Positions 2,093 to 43,908 of a DNA stretch of 64,000 nt are shown here, piece after piece. The notes beneath the pieces are model-generated. The model saw only the letters and a list, made by a program, of their open reading frames with translations. It was not told where the DNA came from and did no database searches. This DNA comes from Actinomycetota bacterium (GTDB taxonomy: Bacteria; Actinomycetota; Coriobacteriia; Anaerosomatales; Anaerosomataceae), in assembly GCA_004348925.1 (NCBI GenBank), contig RCMX01000006.1:666919-730918 (forward strand), written 5' to 3'. A program made the position numbers and the translations under genes. Numbering within the stretch: position 1 is the stretch's first letter; every line of letters begins with the position of its first letter.

Positions 2093-2844
2093 ACGCGTGG
2101 CTGCGTCGCATCGGCGGCTACGCGATCGCCAGCGCCGCGTTGCTGGCGGGTTGGCAGTTGCTCTCGATGGCGATCGGCTCCCAGGCGCTTCCGGGTCCGG
2201 TTCCCGCGCTCTCCGATTTCGGGCGGCTGCTCTTCTCCGACCTGCTGCCGCACGCCGGGATCAGCGCATGGCGTGTCGTGGCGTCGATGACAATCGGCGC
2301 AGCCGTTGCGACGCCGCTTGGTCTCGCAATCGGGCGTAGTCCTCGGGCAGACGCGGTGTTCGCACCGATGATCTTCCTCACGTACCCCGTGCCGAAGGTC
2401 GTCTTCCTGCCGGTCCTTCTTGTGCTGCTCGGCATCGGAAACCTTCCGAAGATCGCGCTCATCACGCTCATCGTCTTCTTCCAGATACTCGTGACGGCGC
2501 GCGACGCGGCGCGCGGCATTCCCGCCTCGGCGGTGCTCTCGGTCCGCTCACTCGGAGCGACGCGCTGGCAGGTCTTCCGTCACGTGGTGGTTCCGGCCGC
2601 GCTGCCCGACATCTTCACGGCGCTGCGCATCTCCACGGGCACGGCCATCGCCGTGCTGTTCTTCTCGGAGACGGTGGCGGGGAGCGAGGGGCTCGGCTAC
2701 TACATCATCGACGCCTGGAGCCGCATCGCGTACAGCGAGATGTTCGCCGGTATCATCGGCATGGCGATGCTCGGCGTGGTGCTCTACGAGCTGCTTGAAC
2801 TCGCCGAGGCACGCGTGTGCCGTTGGACGCGTGTCGAGCGGTAG
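2089..2844 (+). CDS. ABC transporter permease (SsuC/TauC-like)
   Basis: ATGA overlap with the upstream ATPase. Polytopic membrane protein with an EAA-like loop. Confidence 0.85.
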   Translation: MNAWLRRIGGYAIASAALLAGWQLLSMAIGSQALPGPVPALSDFGRLLFSDLLPHAGISAWRVVASMTIGAAVATPLGLAIGRSPRADAVFAPMIFLTYPVPKVVFLPVLLVLLGIGNLPKIALITLIVFFQILVTARDAARGIPASAVLSVRSLGATRWQVFRHVVVPAALPDIFTALRISTGTAIAVLFFSETVAGSEGLGYYIIDAWSRIAYSEMFAGIIGMAMLGVVLYELLELAEARVCRWTRVER

Positions 2845-2846
2845 CC

Positions 2847-3938
2847 CTACGGCAGCTGCTGAACCGGGTGACAGTTCAGGCAGAGATCATCGTAGAAAGC
2901 GGTGGAGGTCGCCTCAACGAGCATGCGGTAGTTCGTCGACTCGTGCGGGAAGTTCTGGAACCGCGGGTTGTCGGTGAGCGAGCGTCCGTCCGCGATGCCG
3001 ACCATGTAGGGTTTCACCGTCCCGGCGTTCCCGGTCGCGCTGAGCGAGCCGACGTCCCGGGCGTCCTCATGACACTGCTGGCAGATAGGCGCGTGGCCAG
3101 TCTGCTCGGCAGTGCGCGGATACGGCATCAGATAGCCCCCGTTGTTAGCGGCAAGCGGTCCGAGCGTCGTCGCGGTGGCGTTCACGCCTGCGTTCAGCCG
3201 TGCGACGTTGTTGTAGATGAACGGTGTCGCGGTCGTCCATTTGGATTCTGCCGGGTGGTTATGGGCCTCGCTCAGGCCGGGGCCTCGACCCTTGTGACAG
3301 GCAAGGCACCAATCGGAGCCGTAGCTTGCTGTTGAGGTGGTCGCCCCCGTTGGGCTGCGCTTCAGCAGGCGGTTCTGTGTCTGCAGGGTCATGATGCCCC
3401 AGCGATAGGCCCTCTGGCGTTCGCCAAGGAATGGATTGACGCAGTCGTTCCCGTGTGGCGAGTGGCAGTCGCTACATGTCAGTTTTCCGCCGGGACCCGC
3501 GAAGGAGATCGTAGCGCTACCGCCATCTGCAGCATTGCCTCCGGGAACAGCCGAGGTAGTCTCGATGCGGTGTCCGGAAGCTACGGCCAGTCCACGTCCG
3601 CTGATGGCGCCGTAGACGCCCTCCCCGATCGTTGCCGTGCCGTCGTGGCACGTCATGCAGGTTGCATGGATGGTCTCGCCGGGGAGCAGTTTGAACCCAC
3701 TCGGGGCGTCATGGAGGGTGTGGCACGTCTTGCATGCGTTGGTGGTGGTGGCGTAGCCACCATGCGGACCCCACCGGGTGCCGGTGTTACCCATAGCGCC
3801 GGGGTAGTGGCACTCCATGCATGTCGCCCAGTCGCCAGCGGTCGACGTGGTTTCGTCGAAAGCGAAGGCCGGGGATGCAAACGCTAAGATCGCGGTGGCG
3901 ATGAGTAGCAGACACGTACGCAGGAATCGAACCCCCAT
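2847..3938 (-). CDS. secreted heptaheme c-type cytochrome (paralogue A)
   Basis: Seven CxxCH motifs (CMECH, CKTCH, CMTCH, CSDCH, CLACH, CQQCH, CLNCH). Start moved to the internal ATG at 3938, which is preceded by GGGAGGGG and followed by a signal peptide ending AFAFDE. Conserved C-terminal NPRFQNFPHE...LCLNCHPV block shared with the paralogues. Confidence 0.85.
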   Translation of the reverse strand: MGVRFLRTCLLLIATAILAFASPAFAFDETTSTAGDWATCMECHYPGAMGNTGTRWGPHGGYATTTNACKTCHTLHDAPSGFKLLPGETIHATCMTCHDGTATIGEGVYGAISGRGLAVASGHRIETTSAVPGGNAADGGSATISFAGPGGKLTCSDCHSPHGNDCVNPFLGERQRAYRWGIMTLQTQNRLLKRSPTGATTSTASYGSDWCLACHKGRGPGLSEAHNHPAESKWTTATPFIYNNVARLNAGVNATATTLGPLAANNGGYLMPYPRTAEQTGHAPICQQCHEDARDVGSLSATGNAGTVKPYMVGIADGRSLTDNPRFQNFPHESTNYRMLVEATSTAFYDDLCLNCHPVQQLP

Positions 3939-4071
3939 GGATAAGCCCCTCCCGCTGTCCATGACGTCGTTGTTCGGTAGTTTCGCATAACGCGGCCAGG
4001 AATAGAACACGAGGCAGCCAAATGGCCCTGGTGTGATCCCGGAAGACGCGATGAGCGAGAAGCGGCGGCCG

Positions 4072-5181
4072 CTAGGGCAGTGACACGACCGGGTGGCAGT
4101 TCAGGCAGAGGTCGTCGTAGTACGCGGTCGAAGTCGCCTCGACGAGCATGCGATAGTTCTGCGTCTCGTGCGGGAAGTTCTGAAACCGGGGATTGTCCCC
4201 GTCGGTCCAGCCATCCGGCGTGGTGATGGTGTACGGCGCGGCGTCCCCCTGGGTGCCGTCCGCCGACAAGCTACCCACCATCCTCGAGTCCTCGTGGCAC
4301 TGCTGGCAGATTGGCGCATGTCCGGTCTGCTGCGCTGTACGAGGCCAGGGCATCAGGTAACCGCGGTTGCTTCCCGCAAGCGTGCCGAGAACGGTAACGC
4401 CGGTCAGGGCATCACCGTTGAGCTTGGCGACGTTCGTGTAGGTGAAGGGGGTCGCAGTCGTGGCTTTGGAATCTGCCGGATGGTTATGCGCCGCAGACAG
4501 TCCCGAGCTCCGACCCTTGTGACAGCCGAGACACCAGTCCGAGCCGTACTCTGCTGTGGGCGTCGTCGAGTTCCCGGGCGATCGCTTCAACAGCTTGCTT
4601 GAGGTGGTAACGCCGATGATTCCCCAGGTTGCCGACCGCTGACGTTCGCCGGCGTAGGCATTCACCACGTCTGCGCCGTGCGGGCTGTGGCATGAGGTGC
4701 ATGTTAGTGTTCCGCCGGGACCACCGAACGCCACGGGAAGCGAACCGCCGCTGTTCTCGTCGCCGCCCGGGACCACGTTGATCGCCTCCACGCTGTGCGA
4801 GGAGCCGACGCTGCGTCCACGGGCGGCGATCGCGCCGTACACGCCTCCACCGGCCGTGCCATCATGGCAGGTCATGCAGGTGGCTTTAGTGGTCGCACCG
4901 GGAAGCAGCATCACGCTCGATGCCGGCGCCTGATGAACGGAGTGGCACTCCCCGCACTTCGATGTGGTGATCGTATACCCGCCATGAACGCCGGCCTTGG
5001 GATCGTCGAATACCGAGCCTGGCCACGGATCATGGCACCCGCCGCAATTCGCTTCATCCATGCTGGGTGGAAGCGTCGAGGTGGTCTCATCGAACGCCAA
5101 AACAACGCTCGGGACCATAACGATCAGGGTCGCGAGCGCCGCGATGGCTGCGATTCGTATGACGGTTGAGCGCATGCTCAC
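4072..5181 (-). CDS. secreted heptaheme c-type cytochrome (paralogue B, tandem copy)
   Basis: Seven CxxCH motifs (CGGCH, CGECH, CMTCH, CTSCH, CLGCH, CQQCH, CLNCH). Signal peptide ...VVLAFDETTST. Collinear conserved blocks with paralogue A. Confidence 0.85.
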   Translation of the reverse strand: MSMRSTVIRIAAIAALATLIVMVPSVVLAFDETTSTLPPSMDEANCGGCHDPWPGSVFDDPKAGVHGGYTITTSKCGECHSVHQAPASSVMLLPGATTKATCMTCHDGTAGGGVYGAIAARGRSVGSSHSVEAINVVPGGDENSGGSLPVAFGGPGGTLTCTSCHSPHGADVVNAYAGERQRSATWGIIGVTTSSKLLKRSPGNSTTPTAEYGSDWCLGCHKGRSSGLSAAHNHPADSKATTATPFTYTNVAKLNGDALTGVTVLGTLAGSNRGYLMPWPRTAQQTGHAPICQQCHEDSRMVGSLSADGTQGDAAPYTITTPDGWTDGDNPRFQNFPHETQNYRMLVEATSTAYYDDLCLNCHPVVSLP

Positions 5182-37765: not shown

Positions 37766-38191
37766 CTAGCTGCGTTCCTCGCCGAGTAGCACCACGCGCT
37801 CTTCCAGCCCGACATCGCGGGCGAGCTTGGCCAGCACCCGGTCGGCGGTGACGAGCGTGTGGCCGCTCTGGATGGCTGCGGCCACGTAGTAGCAGCCGTA
37901 GATCGGGTGGTCGAACGCTAGCGAGATGCGCAGCGCGTCGGCCGTGAGGTCGCCGAGCGGCAGCGCCTGGAGCGGATATGCCCGCAGCTGCGCGACCAGA
38001 TCGTCCGCATCCGAGCCGACGAGCAACCCTCGCCGTACGCGCTTCCAGATTGCGTTGGCGCACTCCGCGTAAAGCAGGTCGGGCGCCGTCAGGCCTTCAG
38101 CGCGCTGCAGGATGCTCACCGCCTCGCGCGACCACTCCTCGCAGACAAGGCACTTGAACATCGCCGACGCGTCAACGACGAGCGATGTCAT
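37766..38191 (-). CDS. vapC: PIN-domain toxin VapC
   Basis: PIN acidic residues (VVDASA...D...D). 4-bp overlap with the upstream antitoxin. Confidence 0.8.
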   Translation of the reverse strand: MTSLVVDASAMFKCLVCEEWSREAVSILQRAEGLTAPDLLYAECANAIWKRVRRGLLVGSDADDLVAQLRAYPLQALPLGDLTADALRISLAFDHPIYGCYYVAAAIQSGHTLVTADRVLAKLARDVGLEERVVLLGEERS

Positions 38192-38424
38192 CGAGAGTCA
38201 CGATCCTCTCGGATGAGGTCTGTGCTGTCGTCTGTGATGTTCCATTCCTTCGATCGCTCACGGAATGCGGCAGCTTCCGCCCACCACTCCTCCAGGGTCG
38301 GTTTCACTGCCGCCGTCAGGATCGACGTGAGTTCTGCCTGCAGCGAGCGATTGTTTCCCGCTGCGCGTGCCTTGAGTTTGGCCACCAGGTCCTCCGACAG
38401 GTTGCGGATGAGAACGTCTGCCAT
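38188..38424 (-). CDS. vapB: ribbon-helix-helix antitoxin (VapB/FitA-like)
   Basis: MADVLIRNLSEDLVAKLKARAA... is an RHH N-terminus. C-terminal DSTDLIREDRDSR toxin-binding tail. Confidence 0.75.
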   Translation of the reverse strand: MADVLIRNLSEDLVAKLKARAAGNNRSLQAELTSILTAAVKPTLEEWWAEAAAFRERSKEWNITDDSTDLIREDRDSR

Positions 38425-39256: not shown

Positions 39257-39694
39257 ATGTTCAAGGAGTTCAAAGAGTTCGCGATCAAGGGAAACGCCGT
39301 CGACCTGGCGATAGGCGTCGTCATAGGCGCGGCGTTCGGTGCGGTCGTGACTTCGCTCGTCAAAGACGTCATTATGCCGCCCATCGGTGCGTTGCTCGGC
39401 GGCGCGGACTTCTCGCAGCTGTTCTGGGTGCTGAAGCAGGGGGCGACGGCCGGCCCGTACGCGACCGTCCAGGCGGCCGCCGACGCGGGAGCGGTCACGC
39501 TCAACTACGGTGTCTTCATCAACGCGCTCATCAGTTTCGTGATCGTGGCGTTCGCGGTGTTCATGCTGGTGAAGCTCATCAACCGGCTGCGTAAGCCCGC
39601 TGCCGAGGAGATCACCACCAAGGAATGCCCGTTCTGCAAGAGTGAGATCGCGCTCGCGGCGACACGGTGCCCGGCGTGCACGAGTGAGGTCTAG
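39257..39694 (+). CDS. mscL: large-conductance mechanosensitive channel MscL with C-terminal CxxC...CxxC zinc-ribbon extension
   Basis: MscL N-terminus [28 protein letters not shown]. Tail [24 protein letters not shown]. Confidence 0.85.
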
Positions 39695-40638
39695 GCGACA
39701 GCTGATCGTTCGCGATGCATGTCGAGAGCGTCAACGCTTGGACGAGCTACTTCGTCTCTTGGTATCCAGAGTGGTTGGTCGTGATACCGCTCGTACTTCG
39801 TTCCCTCCAGGGCTTTGGCCAAGGTCAGGCGCAGCGTCGATGTGTCGACTGCGACTAGGCCAAGGTCGAAGAGATCATGCATGTCTGCGCGGAGTAGCAG
39901 TCCGTTTGCCGGATGGTTAGTCTGGGGGCCCCGATACGGCACGATGTGAGCCGCTTCAAGAGCGGGCTCAGCATCGAACCGGGTCATTGCGCATGTGCCT
40001 TCGTACGCCTGCAGTAGCGCTCGCCGGAATCGGGGGGCCCCCTGTCTTCGATGCACCGCCCTGATCACCTTTATGCGGTCATCTTGTTCGGCGGCTGGGT
40101 TGAACGGTTCAAGAGGGAACTCTACAAGCGAAATTGTGACTGAAGCCCGGTTTTCGAGTGCGTTTGCTCGAGAATCTATGCCAACCGAGACAGGCCCGAC
40201 GAGTTCAAAGAATCCTTGGTTGTATCCAGCAACCATCGCCAGCCCGAGAACCTGATAGCCACGACCAGTGGCTCCGGGGATGATTACGCCCACGGGTATG
40301 CCGTCCGCCATACACCTGAATAGTGCCTCGTTTGCAAAGTGGCGCCCTGGGTCTCGGAAGTCCTCGGCGGTCTTCCCTTGCTGATGGTAGAAGTACTGCC
40401 AGGTGCCATCGGTAGGGTGGAGGATCGGGTCCTGATCGTCGTAGACGCCCTTGTGCGTCTGAACTACGCTCACGGCGTATGGAATCCCCGCCGGCTTCCA
40501 GATCCCTTTCTGAAGCGACGAGACCTTGATCGGCAGTCCAACATCGAAGGGTCTGTTTGGGAACACCCTATTGGCGTTTTCCTCGAACCACAAGAGTGCG
40601 TCTACGTGCCACGACTCAAGCCGGTATGCAGTCCCCAT
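39691..40638 (-). CDS. HNH endonuclease (HNH_2-type) with N-terminal putative modified-DNA-recognition domain; candidate type IV restriction enzyme
   Basis: C-terminal HIVPY...[17 protein letters not shown] motif. Visibly lower GC and atypical codons. Confidence 0.6.
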
Positions 40639-40695
40639 TGGCGAGATCCCCCTTCCGAAATAGCATAAACCAAGCCCCTTCGAAATGGAGCAAGA

Positions 40696-41103
40696 GTGCG
40701 CAGAGTCACCGCAGCAGTGATCATCGAACAGGGTCGCCTGTTCTTGGTCCGTCGACCGCCTTCAGATCGGCTGGCTGGCTTCTGGGAGTTGCCAGGCGGG
40801 AAGATCGAAGGAGATGAGACGCCCGAGGCGTGCCTCAAACGCGAGCTCTTGGAGGAGCTGAGTATGGAGGGAGTGGTGGGTGATCTCGCTGCCACATGTG
40901 TCCACCGCTACTCACACGGGGAGTTTGAGCTGCTTGCGTACGCTTTCGAACGGACATCACCTTATGAGCTGCTGATTCACGACCAGGCCGCCTGGGTGGA
41001 CCACGTCTCTATTCGGGACTACAAACTCGCGCCTGCCGACGTGTTCCTGGTCCAGCAGCTCATGTTCAATCGCGGATGGGATCCGGCCAAACCTGTGAAG
41101 TAG
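40696..41103 (+). CDS. NUDIX hydrolase (MutT-like)
   Basis: Nudix box GGKIEGDETPEACLKRELLEELS. GTG start. Confidence 0.8.
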   Translation: MRRVTAAVIIEQGRLFLVRRPPSDRLAGFWELPGGKIEGDETPEACLKRELLEELSMEGVVGDLAATCVHRYSHGEFELLAYAFERTSPYELLIHDQAAWVDHVSIRDYKLAPADVFLVQQLMFNRGWDPAKPVK

Positions 41104-41116
41104 ACGGGCGTGTCTA

Positions 41117-41467
41117 TCACCCCGCCCCGAGCAACCCTCGCACCTGCGCAACCGCCTCGGCACGCTCGCCGGCCGGCAGCTCGTCGACGCGCTTGAGCGC
41201 CATGACCACGCCCTTGTAGCCGTCCTTCTTCGTGTGGCTGGCGAACCTGCCGGGCTCGGGCGGGAGGAAGATCGCGAGGTCCTCGGAGAGTTTGAACCGC
41301 TCGGCGGTCTTGAGGGCGCGTTCAAGCTCCTTGCCGGTCGGCTCCTGCCATTTCTCAAGCGTGTGCATCACGAGCGCCACCGCGAACGCGCTCGCAACGC
41401 CCGCGCCGCCCTGCATGCCGGCGAACGCGGCCATCATCGCGGCTGGCATCTGCGGTTCTCGGCTCAT
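41117..41467 (-). CDS. hypothetical protein
   Basis: ORF with reasonable composition. No recognisable family. Confidence 0.35.
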   Translation of the reverse strand: MSREPQMPAAMMAAFAGMQGGAGVASAFAVALVMHTLEKWQEPTGKELERALKTAERFKLSEDLAIFLPPEPGRFASHTKKDGYKGVVMALKRVDELPAGERAEAVAQVRGLLGAG

Positions 41468-41867: not shown

Positions 41868-42509
41868 CTACCGCGCGGCTTTCGTCTCGGCACGCCTGAG
41901 CGCGAGACCTCGCCACAGGTACAGTGACGCGGCCGTGCGGTAGGGGCGCCACGGCTCGCCGATGAACGCGACCTCGTCACGGCTGGCGGTGCCTTCGAAG
42001 CCGTACATCCAGCCGACGGTGGCGCGCACCGCGCCGTCATCGATCGCAAGCACGTCCGGTCGGCCAAGGGAGAAGATCAGGTACATCTCGGCGGTCCAGC
42101 GGCCGATGCCTTTGACGGCGGTGAGCTCGGCGACGATATCGTCGTCGGGAAGCGCGCCGAGGCGGCCGATGTCGAGCCTGCCGTCGAGGGTTCGCTCGGC
42201 AAGGTCGCGGAGGAACGACGTCTTACTGCCCGAGAGCCCCGCGCCGCGAAGCGTGTCAGTGTCGGCCGCTATGATGCTTTCGGGGGTGACGCCGCCAAGC
42301 GCGGTCTCGACGCGACCCCAGATCGTGCTGGCGGCCTTGTCCGAGAGCTGTTGGGAGACGATCGCGCTCGCGAGCGAGTTGAAGCCGTCGTTCTCGAGCC
42401 GCTGCGAGATGGGGCCGACGCGATCGATGAGCGCGCCAAGGATCGGGTCAGCGGCACAGAGGTGCACGACCTCGGGGGAGGTGAGGGTGAGTTCGATACG
42501 AGATTCCAT
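41868..42509 (-). CDS. alkA: DNA-3-methyladenine glycosylase II (AlkA-like, HhH-GPD)
   Basis: HhH-GPD core LTAVKGIGRWTAEMYL and catalytic Asp region. Confidence 0.8.
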   Translation of the reverse strand: MESRIELTLTSPEVVHLCAADPILGALIDRVGPISQRLENDGFNSLASAIVSQQLSDKAASTIWGRVETALGGVTPESIIAADTDTLRGAGLSGSKTSFLRDLAERTLDGRLDIGRLGALPDDDIVAELTAVKGIGRWTAEMYLIFSLGRPDVLAIDDGAVRATVGWMYGFEGTASRDEVAFIGEPWRPYRTAASLYLWRGLALRRAETKAAR

Positions 42510-42529: not shown

Positions 42530-43072
42530 TCAGCGCGCGGCGCCGAGCCAGGCCTCATACGCGTCGGCGTCATACAGCACCACGCGCACCTCGCGCACGG
42601 AGTGCGTACGCTCAAGCGCGGTGCGAAGGGCGCGTAGAGCGACGTGCGCCGCCGCCATCATCGGATAGCCGTAGATGCCGGTCGAGATGCTCGGGAATGC
42701 GATTGACTGAAGCCCGAGCCTGTCAGCGATCTCCACGCTCGTGCGGTATGCCGAGGCGAGCGCTTCGGCTTCCCCGTGGTCGCCGCCGTGCCACACCGGG
42801 CCGAGTGCGTGGATGACGTACTGCGCCTTGAGATCGCCGGCGACGGTTGCGACGGCCTCACCAGGCACGAGCTGCTCGCGGTCCGCCATCACGCGGCGGC
42901 AGTCCTCGGTCAGGGTCTTGCCGCCGGCGGTGTGAATCGCGCCGCAAACGCCGCCGCCGGGCCTCAGGCTGGCGTTGGTTGCGTTCACGATGGCATCCAC
43001 GCGTTCATGCGTGATGTCGCCGCGCACGATCCTGATGACGCTGCTGCCGATGTGAATCTCTTCATGATTCAT
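42530..43072 (-). CDS. macro-domain protein (ADP-ribose/O-acetyl-ADP-ribose hydrolase, YmdB-like)
   Basis: Macro motifs VNATNASLRPGGGVCGAIH and FPSISTGIYGYP. Confidence 0.8.
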   Translation of the reverse strand: MNHEEIHIGSSVIRIVRGDITHERVDAIVNATNASLRPGGGVCGAIHTAGGKTLTEDCRRVMADREQLVPGEAVATVAGDLKAQYVIHALGPVWHGGDHGEAEALASAYRTSVEIADRLGLQSIAFPSISTGIYGYPMMAAAHVALRALRTALERTHSVREVRVVLYDADAYEAWLGAAR

Positions 43073-43120
43073 AAGACAACAATACCGCATTGAGCCGACG
43101 GCGGAAGACGAGAACGCACG

Positions 43121-43534
43121 TTAAGTCTCACCTATCCAGATGACCGCCACGCCGGAGGCTCCGGCGACGTCGCGGAGACGGGCGTCGGAGGTCGCCAGCG
43201 TCGCTCGCATTCTCGTGGCAACCGCGAGGTAGGCGCAGTCGTAGACGGGATGCTGCCGTTCGATGCCGATCGCGAGGGCAAGGCGCGTGTACTCCGCGGC
43301 CGCTACCACCGAGAATCCGAGTAGCTCGAAGGCTTCGAGCGCGAGAGACGCCTGCTCTGGAGAGGTCTCGCCGCGGCGAACGCGTTTCCACAGGGCGTTG
43401 GCTACCTCAAGGGCTGTCCAGTCCAAGACGGTCGGGTCGGGCGCAGCGGCAAATTCTACCCGGGCCTGCTCGGACCCAGGCTCGTTCGTTACGAGCTTCA
43501 GAGCCGAACTCGCATCGAAGATGAGAGTGGTCAT
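43121..43534 (-). CDS. vapC: PIN-domain toxin VapC (second copy)
   Basis: PIN fold. About 35% identical to the 37766 copy by eye. Confidence 0.75.
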   Translation of the reverse strand: MTTLIFDASSALKLVTNEPGSEQARVEFAAAPDPTVLDWTALEVANALWKRVRRGETSPEQASLALEAFELLGFSVVAAAEYTRLALAIGIERQHPVYDCAYLAVATRMRATLATSDARLRDVAGASGVAVIWIGET

Positions 43535-43761
43535 CGCGAGTCTCTATCCTCCCGAATGAGGAAGGTTGAGTCGGTGTCGAAGGTGGGCAGCCGGTCTCGC
43601 AGCTCCTCCAGCAGCGCGATCGACTCGGCCTTGCTGAGGCGAACCGAGCGCTTGAGGGTGTCGTGGACCTCGGCCTGCAGCGAGCGGCCGTGCTGTTCGG
43701 CGCGCTTCTTGAGCTGCTCAAGCACGTGCGGATCCAGATTGCGGATGAGGAAGTCGGTCAC
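43531..43761 (-). CDS. vapB: RHH antitoxin VapB (second copy)
   Basis: GTG start after AGGAG. LIRNL N-terminus and DSTFLIREDRDSR tail shared with copy 1. Confidence 0.7.
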   Translation of the reverse strand: MTDFLIRNLDPHVLEQLKKRAEQHGRSLQAEVHDTLKRSVRLSKAESIALLEELRDRLPTFDTDSTFLIREDRDSR

Positions 43762-43908
43762 AAGGACTCCTCGGCGTCGGCGGAGTGATACCGATATGAT
43801 ACTACCCACCGCGAACCTCCAGCCATCCGCCCGTCTGACCGTTCTTCTCGGCTATAATCCCAGCTAGCACCGACCGCGCCCTGAACGATCTCCGACCGGA
43901 GGCCTACC

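Follow-up and report, generated by a model that had tools for sequence, protein, structure and literature searches.

The recombination of one sensor domain with unrelated nucleases is a hallmark of modification-dependent restriction enzymes (PMC6765204). Enzymes built from an SRA (SET-and-RING-associated) domain and an HNH nuclease are represented by TagI, ScoA3IV (Sco5333), and TbiR51I (PMC6212794, PMC4333417, PMC6765204). In VcaM4I an EVE domain serves as the sensor of an HNH nuclease (PDB 6yex; PMC7897488), and ScoMcrA and SprMcrA contain a sulfur-binding domain (SBD) together with a nuclease of the HNH_2 type. In TagI and VcaM4I the HNH domains dimerize for double-strand cuts. Here, we describe a gene with SRA-HNH architecture in a stretch of 64,000 nucleotides from an Actinomycetota bacterium of the Anaerosomataceae (assembly GCA_004348925.1, contig RCMX01000006.1, positions 666,919 to 730,918), in the following called the window. 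The gene lies divergently next to a gene encoding a NUDIX hydrolase, and the protein probably acts as a homodimeric, nucleoside triphosphate (NTP)-independent, modification-dependent (type IV) SRA-HNH endonuclease that forms a cassette with this NUDIX partner. All coordinates refer to positions within the window, and L-numbers are labels of loci from relatives.

The SRA-HNH protein has the architecture and, as far as its model tells, the fold of TagI, ScoA3IV, and TbiR51I. It has no detectable sequence relationship to TagI and represents a separate sequence family, and its nuclease is of the HNH_2 type and nearer to those of VcaM4I and ScoMcrA than to that of TagI. To VcaM4I it matches through the HNH domain only, the sensor of VcaM4I being EVE and not SRA. 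Moreover, the linker of VcaM4I is helical and auto-inhibitory, whereas that of the SRA-HNH protein shows little conservation and, according to prediction, is disordered, and the canonical second histidine of the nuclease is kept (H254) where VcaM4I has Asp250. With ScoMcrA and SprMcrA the HNH_2 type is held in common; however, the SRA-HNH protein contains no SBD, and nothing in it points to the phosphorothioate dependence of SBD-HNH enzymes. A conserved NUDIX partner was not reported for the TagI/ScoA3IV family, and a neighborhood survey of 350 PUA-domain endonuclease fusion proteins has no mention of NUDIX (PMC6765204). Likewise, full-text literature searches on NUDIX together with type IV, modification-dependent, and defense-island topics returned no description of a NUDIX/type IV pairing. 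New here are thus a divergent SRA family outside the domain libraries, another combination of sensor and nuclease, and a conserved NUDIX partner in this clade. The features of the cassette are:

39691..40638, minus strand: SRA-HNH gene, complete (open reading frame list, full-length homologues, AlphaFold mean pLDDT 87.7)
40189..40629, minus strand: predicted SRA modified-base-reading domain, amino acids 4-150
40051..40188, minus strand: variable inter-domain linker, amino acids 151-196 (low pLDDT; least conserved in the alignment)
39694..40050, minus strand: HNH (beta-beta-alpha-Me) nuclease domain and C-terminal helices, amino acids 197-315
39844-39993, minus strand: Pfam HNH_2 core, amino acids 216-265 (E = 3.8e-13)
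40639..40695, no strand: divergent intergenic region, 57 bp
40696..41103, plus strand: NUDIX hydrolase, 135 amino acids, MutT/NudG-like NUDIX_4 (Pfam NUDIX_4, E = 3.9e-18)

The SRA-HNH Gene

The open reading frame (ORF) starts with ATG, encodes 315 amino acids, and ends with a stop codon at 39691-39693. A database search retrieved 2692 homologues at E ≤ 1e-3, the best 120 of which are co-linear and full-length with 60-100% identity, so the ORF is a real conserved gene and not a chance reading frame; an identical protein is found in one Actinobacteria metagenome-assembled genome (MAG). In a first-pass annotation made from the letters alone, this ORF had been described as a low-GC HNH nuclease with an unassigned N-terminal domain, a candidate modification-dependent restriction enzyme next to a divergent NUDIX gene. 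The ORF lies on the minus strand and contains both peptides quoted there, the one with WQYFYHQQG in its N-terminal part, and the C-terminal HNH_2 motif is confirmed by Pfam HNH_2 (49.5 bits against a cutoff of 21; E = 3.8e-13), with the HIVPY stretch at amino acids 231-258. The NUDIX gene was likewise recovered, 57 bp from the start of the HNH gene.

The low GC content is equally apparent, as the gene has a GC of 0.581 compared to a window mean of 0.653 (standard deviation 0.028, 948-bp windows). It is the lowest-GC stretch of the window, only 0.6% of all 948-bp windows being equally low and every one of these lying inside the gene. At third codon positions the GC content (GC3) is 0.63, compared to 0.75-0.89 in nine neighboring genes. 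The NUDIX gene has the same anomaly (GC 0.596, GC3 0.69), and the two genes have an atypical codon usage in common. Low GC of both the nuclease and the NUDIX gene was also observed in seven of nine relatives examined.

The N-Terminal Domain

Scans with Pfam, NCBIfam, and PADLOC matched only the C-terminal nuclease and returned nothing for amino acids 1-195. Among PDB sequences, the single protein and a shallow profile likewise matched nothing but the HNH domain of VcaM4I. A first AlphaFold run with a shallow alignment of 41 sequences at least 60% identical gave a good SRA domain and an HNH domain with a predicted local distance difference test score (pLDDT) below 50. This model was replaced by that of a second run using 68 two-domain relatives down to 29% identity, with a mean pLDDT of 87.7; the two domains each exceed 90, and amino acids 156-196 form a disordered linker. 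Within the linker, pLDDT falls below 50 at amino acids 156-174 and 189-196. The segment 151-196 shows the lowest conservation in the close-family alignment and is probably flexible as judged from the model.

The modeled N-terminal domain has an SRA fold. A Foldseek search with the first model returned SRA domains for all of the top eight PDB matches, namely those of LpnPI, SUVH5, SUVH6, KRYPTONITE, and AspBHI. The sequence identity to proven 5-methylcytosine (5mC) readers is only 22-25%. The first-pass annotation had suspected a PUA-, EVE-, or SRA-like reader of modified bases and had named a fold that does not bind DNA as an outcome that would refute it; the fold turned out to be SRA, and the proposed type IV enzyme of an HNH_2 nuclease and a modified-base reader is supported with respect to fold and architecture. 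A deeper profile gave a non-significant match to the SUVH4 SRA domain in the PDB (E = 0.76), in whose alignment the family motifs Y-x-D, N-x-A-L, PVGV, and Y-x-V-L-G-L stand opposite YEDD, GNLAL, PVRV, and YTYDGLY. Invariant in the family are Y66, W80, Y84, P115, Y128, and G132, and nearly invariant are G45-I46-x-K48-P49, D68, and N103. Across the 68 sequences down to 29% identity, Y66 and Y84 are kept without exception and D68 nearly so, and the motifs that hold these three residues are congruent with the SUVH4 SRA alignment and with Y55, Y67, and D58 of TagI.

Two other assignments of the N-terminus were considered and rejected. An EVE domain finds no PF01878 match, and the best structural matches are SRA domains. 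A sulfur-binding domain is part of the NCBIfam model NF045808 (PT-DNA_restrict), which scores 43.8 bits against a cutoff of 180 and matches at model positions 157-279, i.e., through its HNH part only; the fold of the N-terminus is again SRA.

The Wider Family and Its Fusion Partners

A profile of the N-terminal domain only was searched against 1.84 billion representative proteins. At E ≤ 1e-3 the domain family comprises 440 clusters (50% identity), of which 277 remain at E ≤ 1e-10. Among the best 150 clusters, the SRA-HNH_2 architecture with a length of approximately 300-330 amino acids was found in 72 by Pfam and in 77 by phmmer. Other fusions in this set include the NOV_C PD-(D/E)xK nuclease (5), the GIY-YIG T5orf172/MUG113 nuclease (2), and EVE (2), and furthermore the NgoFVII PLD nuclease, an AAA_5 ATPase (McrB-like), and DpnI_C; one member is matched directly by Pfam SAD_SRA. 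Such a repertoire characterizes a module that serves modification-dependent endonucleases as their modification sensor.

Full-length relatives with 35-40% identity were found on a Rhizobium plasmid and in an accessory/defense hotspot of a Vibrio prophage beside a PD-Lambda-5 gene, and these plasmid and prophage relatives carry the annotation "HNH endonuclease" or "hypothetical protein" only. In Vibrio phage 10N.286.54.E5_PE002 (L122, 3629-4909), a full-length relative with 35% identity lies inside a 427-amino acid ORF, which has the integrase gene and a PD-Lambda-5 gene as neighbors and is located where a prophage-like element ends. This relative was labeled "RM_Type_II REase" by the depositor's tool and is probably a type IV enzyme.

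The Nuclease Domain

In a profile alignment, H231, N245, H254, and D258 align with H224, N241, D250, and D254 of VcaM4I, and all four are invariant or nearly so across the 68-sequence family. Alanine at H224, D250, or D254 drastically impaired the activity of VcaM4I (PMC7897488). Since all four catalytic positions are kept, the nuclease is predicted to be active, with H231 as putative general base, N245 in a structural role, and H254 and D258 as putative metal ligands. By analogy to TagI and VcaM4I, the SRA-HNH protein may likewise dimerize. There is no methyltransferase gene beside the SRA-HNH gene, nor did a crude scan of the whole 64-kb window detect motifs of C5 or N6 methyltransferases, which fits a solitary type IV enzyme.

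The NUDIX Gene and the Intergenic Region

The Nudix box GX5EX7REUXEEXGU is present in the NUDIX protein as GKIEGDETPEACLKRELLEELS, with S in place of the terminal G, and no second ORF with a Nudix box turned up in the window when it was crudely scanned for the motif. The best NCBIfam match is NudG (PRK10546), with 80.3 bits against an equivalog cutoff of 156, and the MutT model scores 65.2 bits against a cutoff of 97.9. PADLOC classifies the protein as the defense candidate PDC-S07 (E = 1.9e-34), for which the literature yielded inventory mentions only and no functional test. The best matches among PDB sequences are the uncharacterized NUDIX protein 3r03, BdRppH (3ees), and Escherichia coli NudG (2rrk), the last of these over the full length with E = 1.4e-16. 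In PMC5389931, which refers to O'Handley et al. 2001, E. coli NudG is listed as a 5-methyl-dCTP pyrophosphatase. This enzyme (Orf135) is a CTP/dCTP/5-methyl-dCTP pyrophosphohydrolase, which the NUDIX protein matches in full length and below the equivalog cutoff. Human DCTPP1 is its functional analogue. NudG is not known to be linked to a restriction enzyme, and the literature searches yielded no such link.

In the intergenic region, the minus strand before the HNH start contains a -10-like TATGCT at 40662-40667 and a purine-rich Shine-Dalgarno sequence GGAAGGGGGA at 40647-40656. TATNCT and GGAGG-like elements are kept in nearly all of 14 aligned orthologous intergenic regions, and a promoter function of the -10-like element may be assumed from the sequence. 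A consensus sigma-70 scan of the intergenic region found nothing, and terminator-like matches were no more frequent there than in shuffled sequence. A direct repeat of 12 nucleotides, CCCTTC(C)GAAAT, occurs there in two copies 27 bp apart (40649-40686), each of which includes a TTCGAA-like palindrome; it was dropped as a candidate element, being unconserved in the orthologous loci.

Pairing of the NUDIX and Nuclease Genes Across Genomes

The close family (59-77% identity) occurs in MAGs of Coriobacteriia and other Actinomycetota. Nuclease-retrieved loci were collapsed at 97% identity, leaving 17 with enough upstream DNA for assessment, and in 15 of these a divergent NUDIX gene lies 41-80 bp upstream of the nuclease start, encoding a homologue 46-61% identical to that of the window. 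The outer flanks of the pair differ from locus to locus. The window has MscL on one side and genes for a 116-amino acid hypothetical protein, an HhH-GPD protein, and a Macro protein on the other. In L004 additional GMC-oxidoreductase and glycosyltransferase genes flank the pair at one end, and GYD, SLFN/AlbA_2, and HTH-Fic genes at the other. In L001 the NUDIX and nuclease genes lie between MazG-like and RhuM genes and a PemK/MazE pair. The two loci among the 17 that keep the nuclease and have lost the NUDIX gene are L010, a clean loss, and L021 from a Coriobacteriia relative, where an 826-amino acid GmrSD_N (DUF262-type) protein, another type IV enzyme, occupies the NUDIX position (2122-4602). 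A weak NUDIX-like match upstream of the L021 homologue (E = 2.9e-5) is probably spurious, as GmrSD_N is encoded there on the other strand.

In the reverse direction, we started from the NUDIX gene and inspected eight of its orthologues (51-62% identity), all of them located on long contigs. Six have an SRA-HNH gene as their divergent neighbor, and the surroundings differ in every case (Mrr_cat, NB-ARC STAND, AAA_21 with DUF4435, HerA/NurA, and once plain housekeeping genes). The remaining two, from two other genomes, show an operon-like 4-bp overlap with the end of a McrC-like gene, whose DUF2357 (E = 1.6e-32) and PDDEXK_7 (E = 2.7e-19) domains correspond to the N-terminus and the nuclease of McrC (PMC11090510). 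Upstream of this McrC-like gene lies that of a large P-loop NTPase, which matches PADLOC PDC-M26A and has only sub-threshold AAA/AAA_5 matches. Taken together, the NUDIX and nuclease genes form a cassette that moves as a unit, with the NUDIX gene as a conserved and not an incidental partner, and members of this NUDIX clade are also found attached to another type-IV-like nuclease system that is unrelated to the first.

Some of these loci deserve a closer description. The NUDIX orthologues that follow the McrC-like gene are found in L113 (2937-4399) and L116 (1-4396) and have 58-59% identity; in L113 the gene calls divide the NTPase region into two shorter genes, and in L116 a UvrD-type helicase and a PLD-family gene lie beyond. 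One of the six divergent SRA-HNH genes (L118, 3004-4045) is split over two frames, with SRA in one and HNH in the other, which is due either to a pseudogene or to a long-read assembly error. In L119 (616-2812 and 4438-7427) and L117 (1866-2663 and 4643-7237) the pair lies among recognizable defense genes, including AAA_21 with DUF4435 (PARIS-like), HerA with NurA, Mrr_cat/NA-iREase1, NB-ARC/TPR STAND, and a phage-integrase fragment. In L001, from a 2-Mb genome, a MazG-like gene (PF12643; 5176-5517) encoding a second putative deoxynucleoside triphosphate (dNTP) pyrophosphatase directly flanks the NUDIX/SRA-HNH pair, with RhuM, HTH/M78-peptidase, and PemK/MazE genes further out.

Proposed Mechanism and Alternative Explanations

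In the mechanism that we propose, the SRA domain would scan duplex DNA and flip a modified cytosine, 5mC and/or 5-hydroxymethylcytosine (5hmC), into an aromatic pocket, the walls of which are probably formed by Y66 and Y84 and in which the carboxylate of D68 would read the Watson-Crick edge. A flexible linker would tether this domain to the HNH_2 beta-beta-alpha-Me nuclease with H231, N245, H254, and D258, and phage or plasmid DNA with cytosine modifications would be destroyed. The NUDIX protein is preferably read as a MutT/NudG-like (d)NTP pyrophosphohydrolase that may hydrolyze modified dCTP (5-methyl- or 5-hydroxymethyl-dCTP), a role that we infer from gene association and family membership. 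Such nucleotides could come from the salvage of degraded modified DNA or from synthesis by a phage. Their hydrolysis would keep the mark targeted by the nuclease out of the host chromosome, i.e., pool sanitizing as immunity, and might in addition deprive modified-DNA phages that use 5hm-dCTP of their precursor. Type IV enzymes have no built-in self-protection, and a nuclease directed against modified cytosine puts its host at risk once modified dCTP is built into the host's DNA. A two-component type IV module, in which the nuclease cuts DNA with modified cytosine, the NUDIX protein removes the matching dNTP, and pool control replaces the safeguard of a methyltransferase, is put forward here as a tentative possibility.

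Several observations weigh against this reading. On the side of the sensor, Pfam SAD_SRA gives no match to the SRA-HNH protein at E ≤ 0.1, profile searches among PDB sequences do not retrieve TagI even at E ≤ 10, and the putative pocket residues Y66, D68, and Y84 are assigned from motif congruence and not from superposition. With regard to its partner, the NUDIX protein scores below every NCBIfam equivalog cutoff and is about as similar to the RNA pyrophosphohydrolase BdRppH (3ees) and to MutT as it is to NudG. Furthermore, the pairing hardly extends beyond one bacterial class, and common descent within Coriobacteriia could inflate its apparent conservation. Among distant SRA-HNH_2 loci (33-42% identity), 18 of the 19 assessable ones, plasmid and prophage copies included, have no NUDIX gene; the exception is L060, whose SRA-HNH protein is 35% identical and where a NUDIX_4 gene unrelated to that of the window (33% identical) immediately precedes the nuclease gene on its own strand, which speaks for the pairing. 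Because the 18 distant loci as well as the close relatives L010 and L021 carry the nuclease alone, it is tolerated without NUDIX. The enzyme might therefore be a stand-alone type IV enzyme and the NUDIX protein a mere neighbor, either a housekeeping MutT that attracts defense genes or the single-gene defense candidate PDC-S07, as which PADLOC treats this NUDIX type; the JGI annotation of the gene as 8-oxo-dGTP diphosphatase points in the same direction. We regard this explanation as rather doubtful, yet it deserves to be taken seriously. It is at odds with a pair that stays divergent and 41-85 bp apart over at least six different outer contexts, with the atypical GC3 common to both genes, and with the finding that all eight sampled NUDIX orthologues adjoin a type-IV-like nuclease gene, two of them by the 4-bp overlap with the McrC-like gene. 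A housekeeping gene would moreover be expected to retain at least one conserved flank, and the NUDIX gene has none.

Other explanations concern what the sensor recognizes. A general DNA clamp in place of a reader would make the protein a modification-independent HNH nuclease of the type II-like, homing, or nicking kind, to which the second and third PADLOC matches, both "type II restriction enzyme" HNH models, the low identity of 22-25% to proven 5mC readers, and the loss of modification dependence in Mn2+ by ScoMcrA and its relatives (PMC7461809) would lend some weight. However, an unprotected nuclease of this type would be lethal and there is no adjacent cognate methyltransferase, and the conservation of Y66, D68, and Y84 down to 29% identity argues for a ligand pocket over a clamp, which leaves this explanation improbable. 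Surveillance of DNA damage, in which the SRA domain would flip damaged or oxidized bases, the HNH domain would nick, and the NUDIX protein would clean oxidized dNTPs together with the HhH-GPD and macro-domain proteins, is very improbable. It draws on the HhH-GPD glycosylase gene approximately 0.8 kb from the pair and the nearby Macro-domain gene in the window, on the same glycosylase nearby in L004, L008, and L010, and on the resemblance of the NUDIX protein to MutT, but both genes are missing from most other pair loci (L001, L114, L117, L119, L120), and these are defense islands with Mrr_cat, NB-ARC STAND, AAA_21 with DUF4435, HerA/NurA, GmrSD, and toxin-antitoxin pairs. In addition, all characterized prokaryotic nucleases with an SRA-type sensor among the structural matches are restriction enzymes, and the other fusion partners of the domain are restriction nucleases. 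It is finally conceivable, with a probability that we consider minimal, that the SRA domain binds a free modified nucleotide made by a phage and licenses the HNH domain in an abortive-infection switch, the threshold of which the NUDIX protein sets by hydrolyzing the ligand. Nothing in the analysis points to the binding of a free ligand, SRA domains of the same fold all bind flipped bases within DNA, and the architecture closely matches the DNA-scanning endonucleases TagI and VcaM4I.

The type IV enzyme itself belongs to an expected kind of defense gene, whereas the link of one NUDIX clade to two different type IV nucleases is unexpected. If the preferred reading of a modification-dependent SRA-HNH endonuclease with a NUDIX partner is correct, a large mobile family of modified-DNA sensors (approximately 440 clusters) escapes the current domain libraries, and about half of its best 150 clusters are SRA-HNH_2 proteins, with family members on chromosomes, a plasmid, and prophages that are annotated as "HNH endonuclease" only. 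Recognizing this family would improve defense annotation and might provide epigenomic mapping with new enzymes that depend on 5mC or 5hmC, of the sort that have come from the MspJI, PvuRts1I, and TagI families. A sanitizer of the dNTP pool linked to two unrelated type IV nucleases would represent a new principle against autoimmunity or a second attack on phages, and it would make physiological sense of NudG-like 5-methyl-dCTP pyrophosphatases and of PADLOC PDC-S07.

The Genomic Neighborhood

Beyond the NUDIX gene, three further genes lie on the minus strand:

41117-41467, minus strand: conserved 116-amino acid protein, no family match
41868-42509, minus strand: HhH-GPD DNA glycosylase
42530-43090, minus strand: Macro-domain protein

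The gene for the 116-amino acid protein lies within approximately 4 kb of the cassette in several relatives and its side varies, being upstream in L004, L008, and L010 and downstream in L014 and L016. The region is bracketed by two gene pairs resembling PIN toxins and ribbon-helix-helix (RHH) antitoxins, at 37766-38424 (141 and 78 amino acids) and at 43121-43809 (137 and 92 amino acids). Each pair overlaps by 4 bp, and the pairs are assigned to PF01850 PIN and FitA-like/RHH_1 by synteny with L004. These bracketing pairs and the variable insertions in relatives suggest a hotspot for defense and accessory genes between the prephenate dehydratase and seryl-tRNA synthetase genes.

The compositional deviation had led the first-pass annotation to suggest a recent horizontal origin. 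The pair is indeed compositionally foreign, but the same MscL...HhH-GPD neighborhood, with lineage-specific insertions, is present in relatives with proteins of 67-77% identity, so the pair was not newly acquired by the window genome. Either the cassette predates the divergence of those lineages or it re-inserts at a hotspot. When the flanks of the low-GC cassette were searched for att-like direct repeats and for inverted repeats, only short pairs turned up, as expected by chance.

On the other side, the MscL gene (39257-39694, plus strand) and the SRA-HNH gene are convergent, and their ends share a CTAG palindrome at 39691-39694 in which the two TAG stop codons overlap, leaving neither intergenic space nor a terminator between them. 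In L004 and L008 the two genes are separated by 2.8-3.5 kb, and the gap in L004 holds a small ORF in addition to the GMC-oxidoreductase and glycosyltransferase genes. The MscL protein of the window has a cysteine-rich C-terminal extension (CPFC...CPAC) with weak matches to zinc ribbons.

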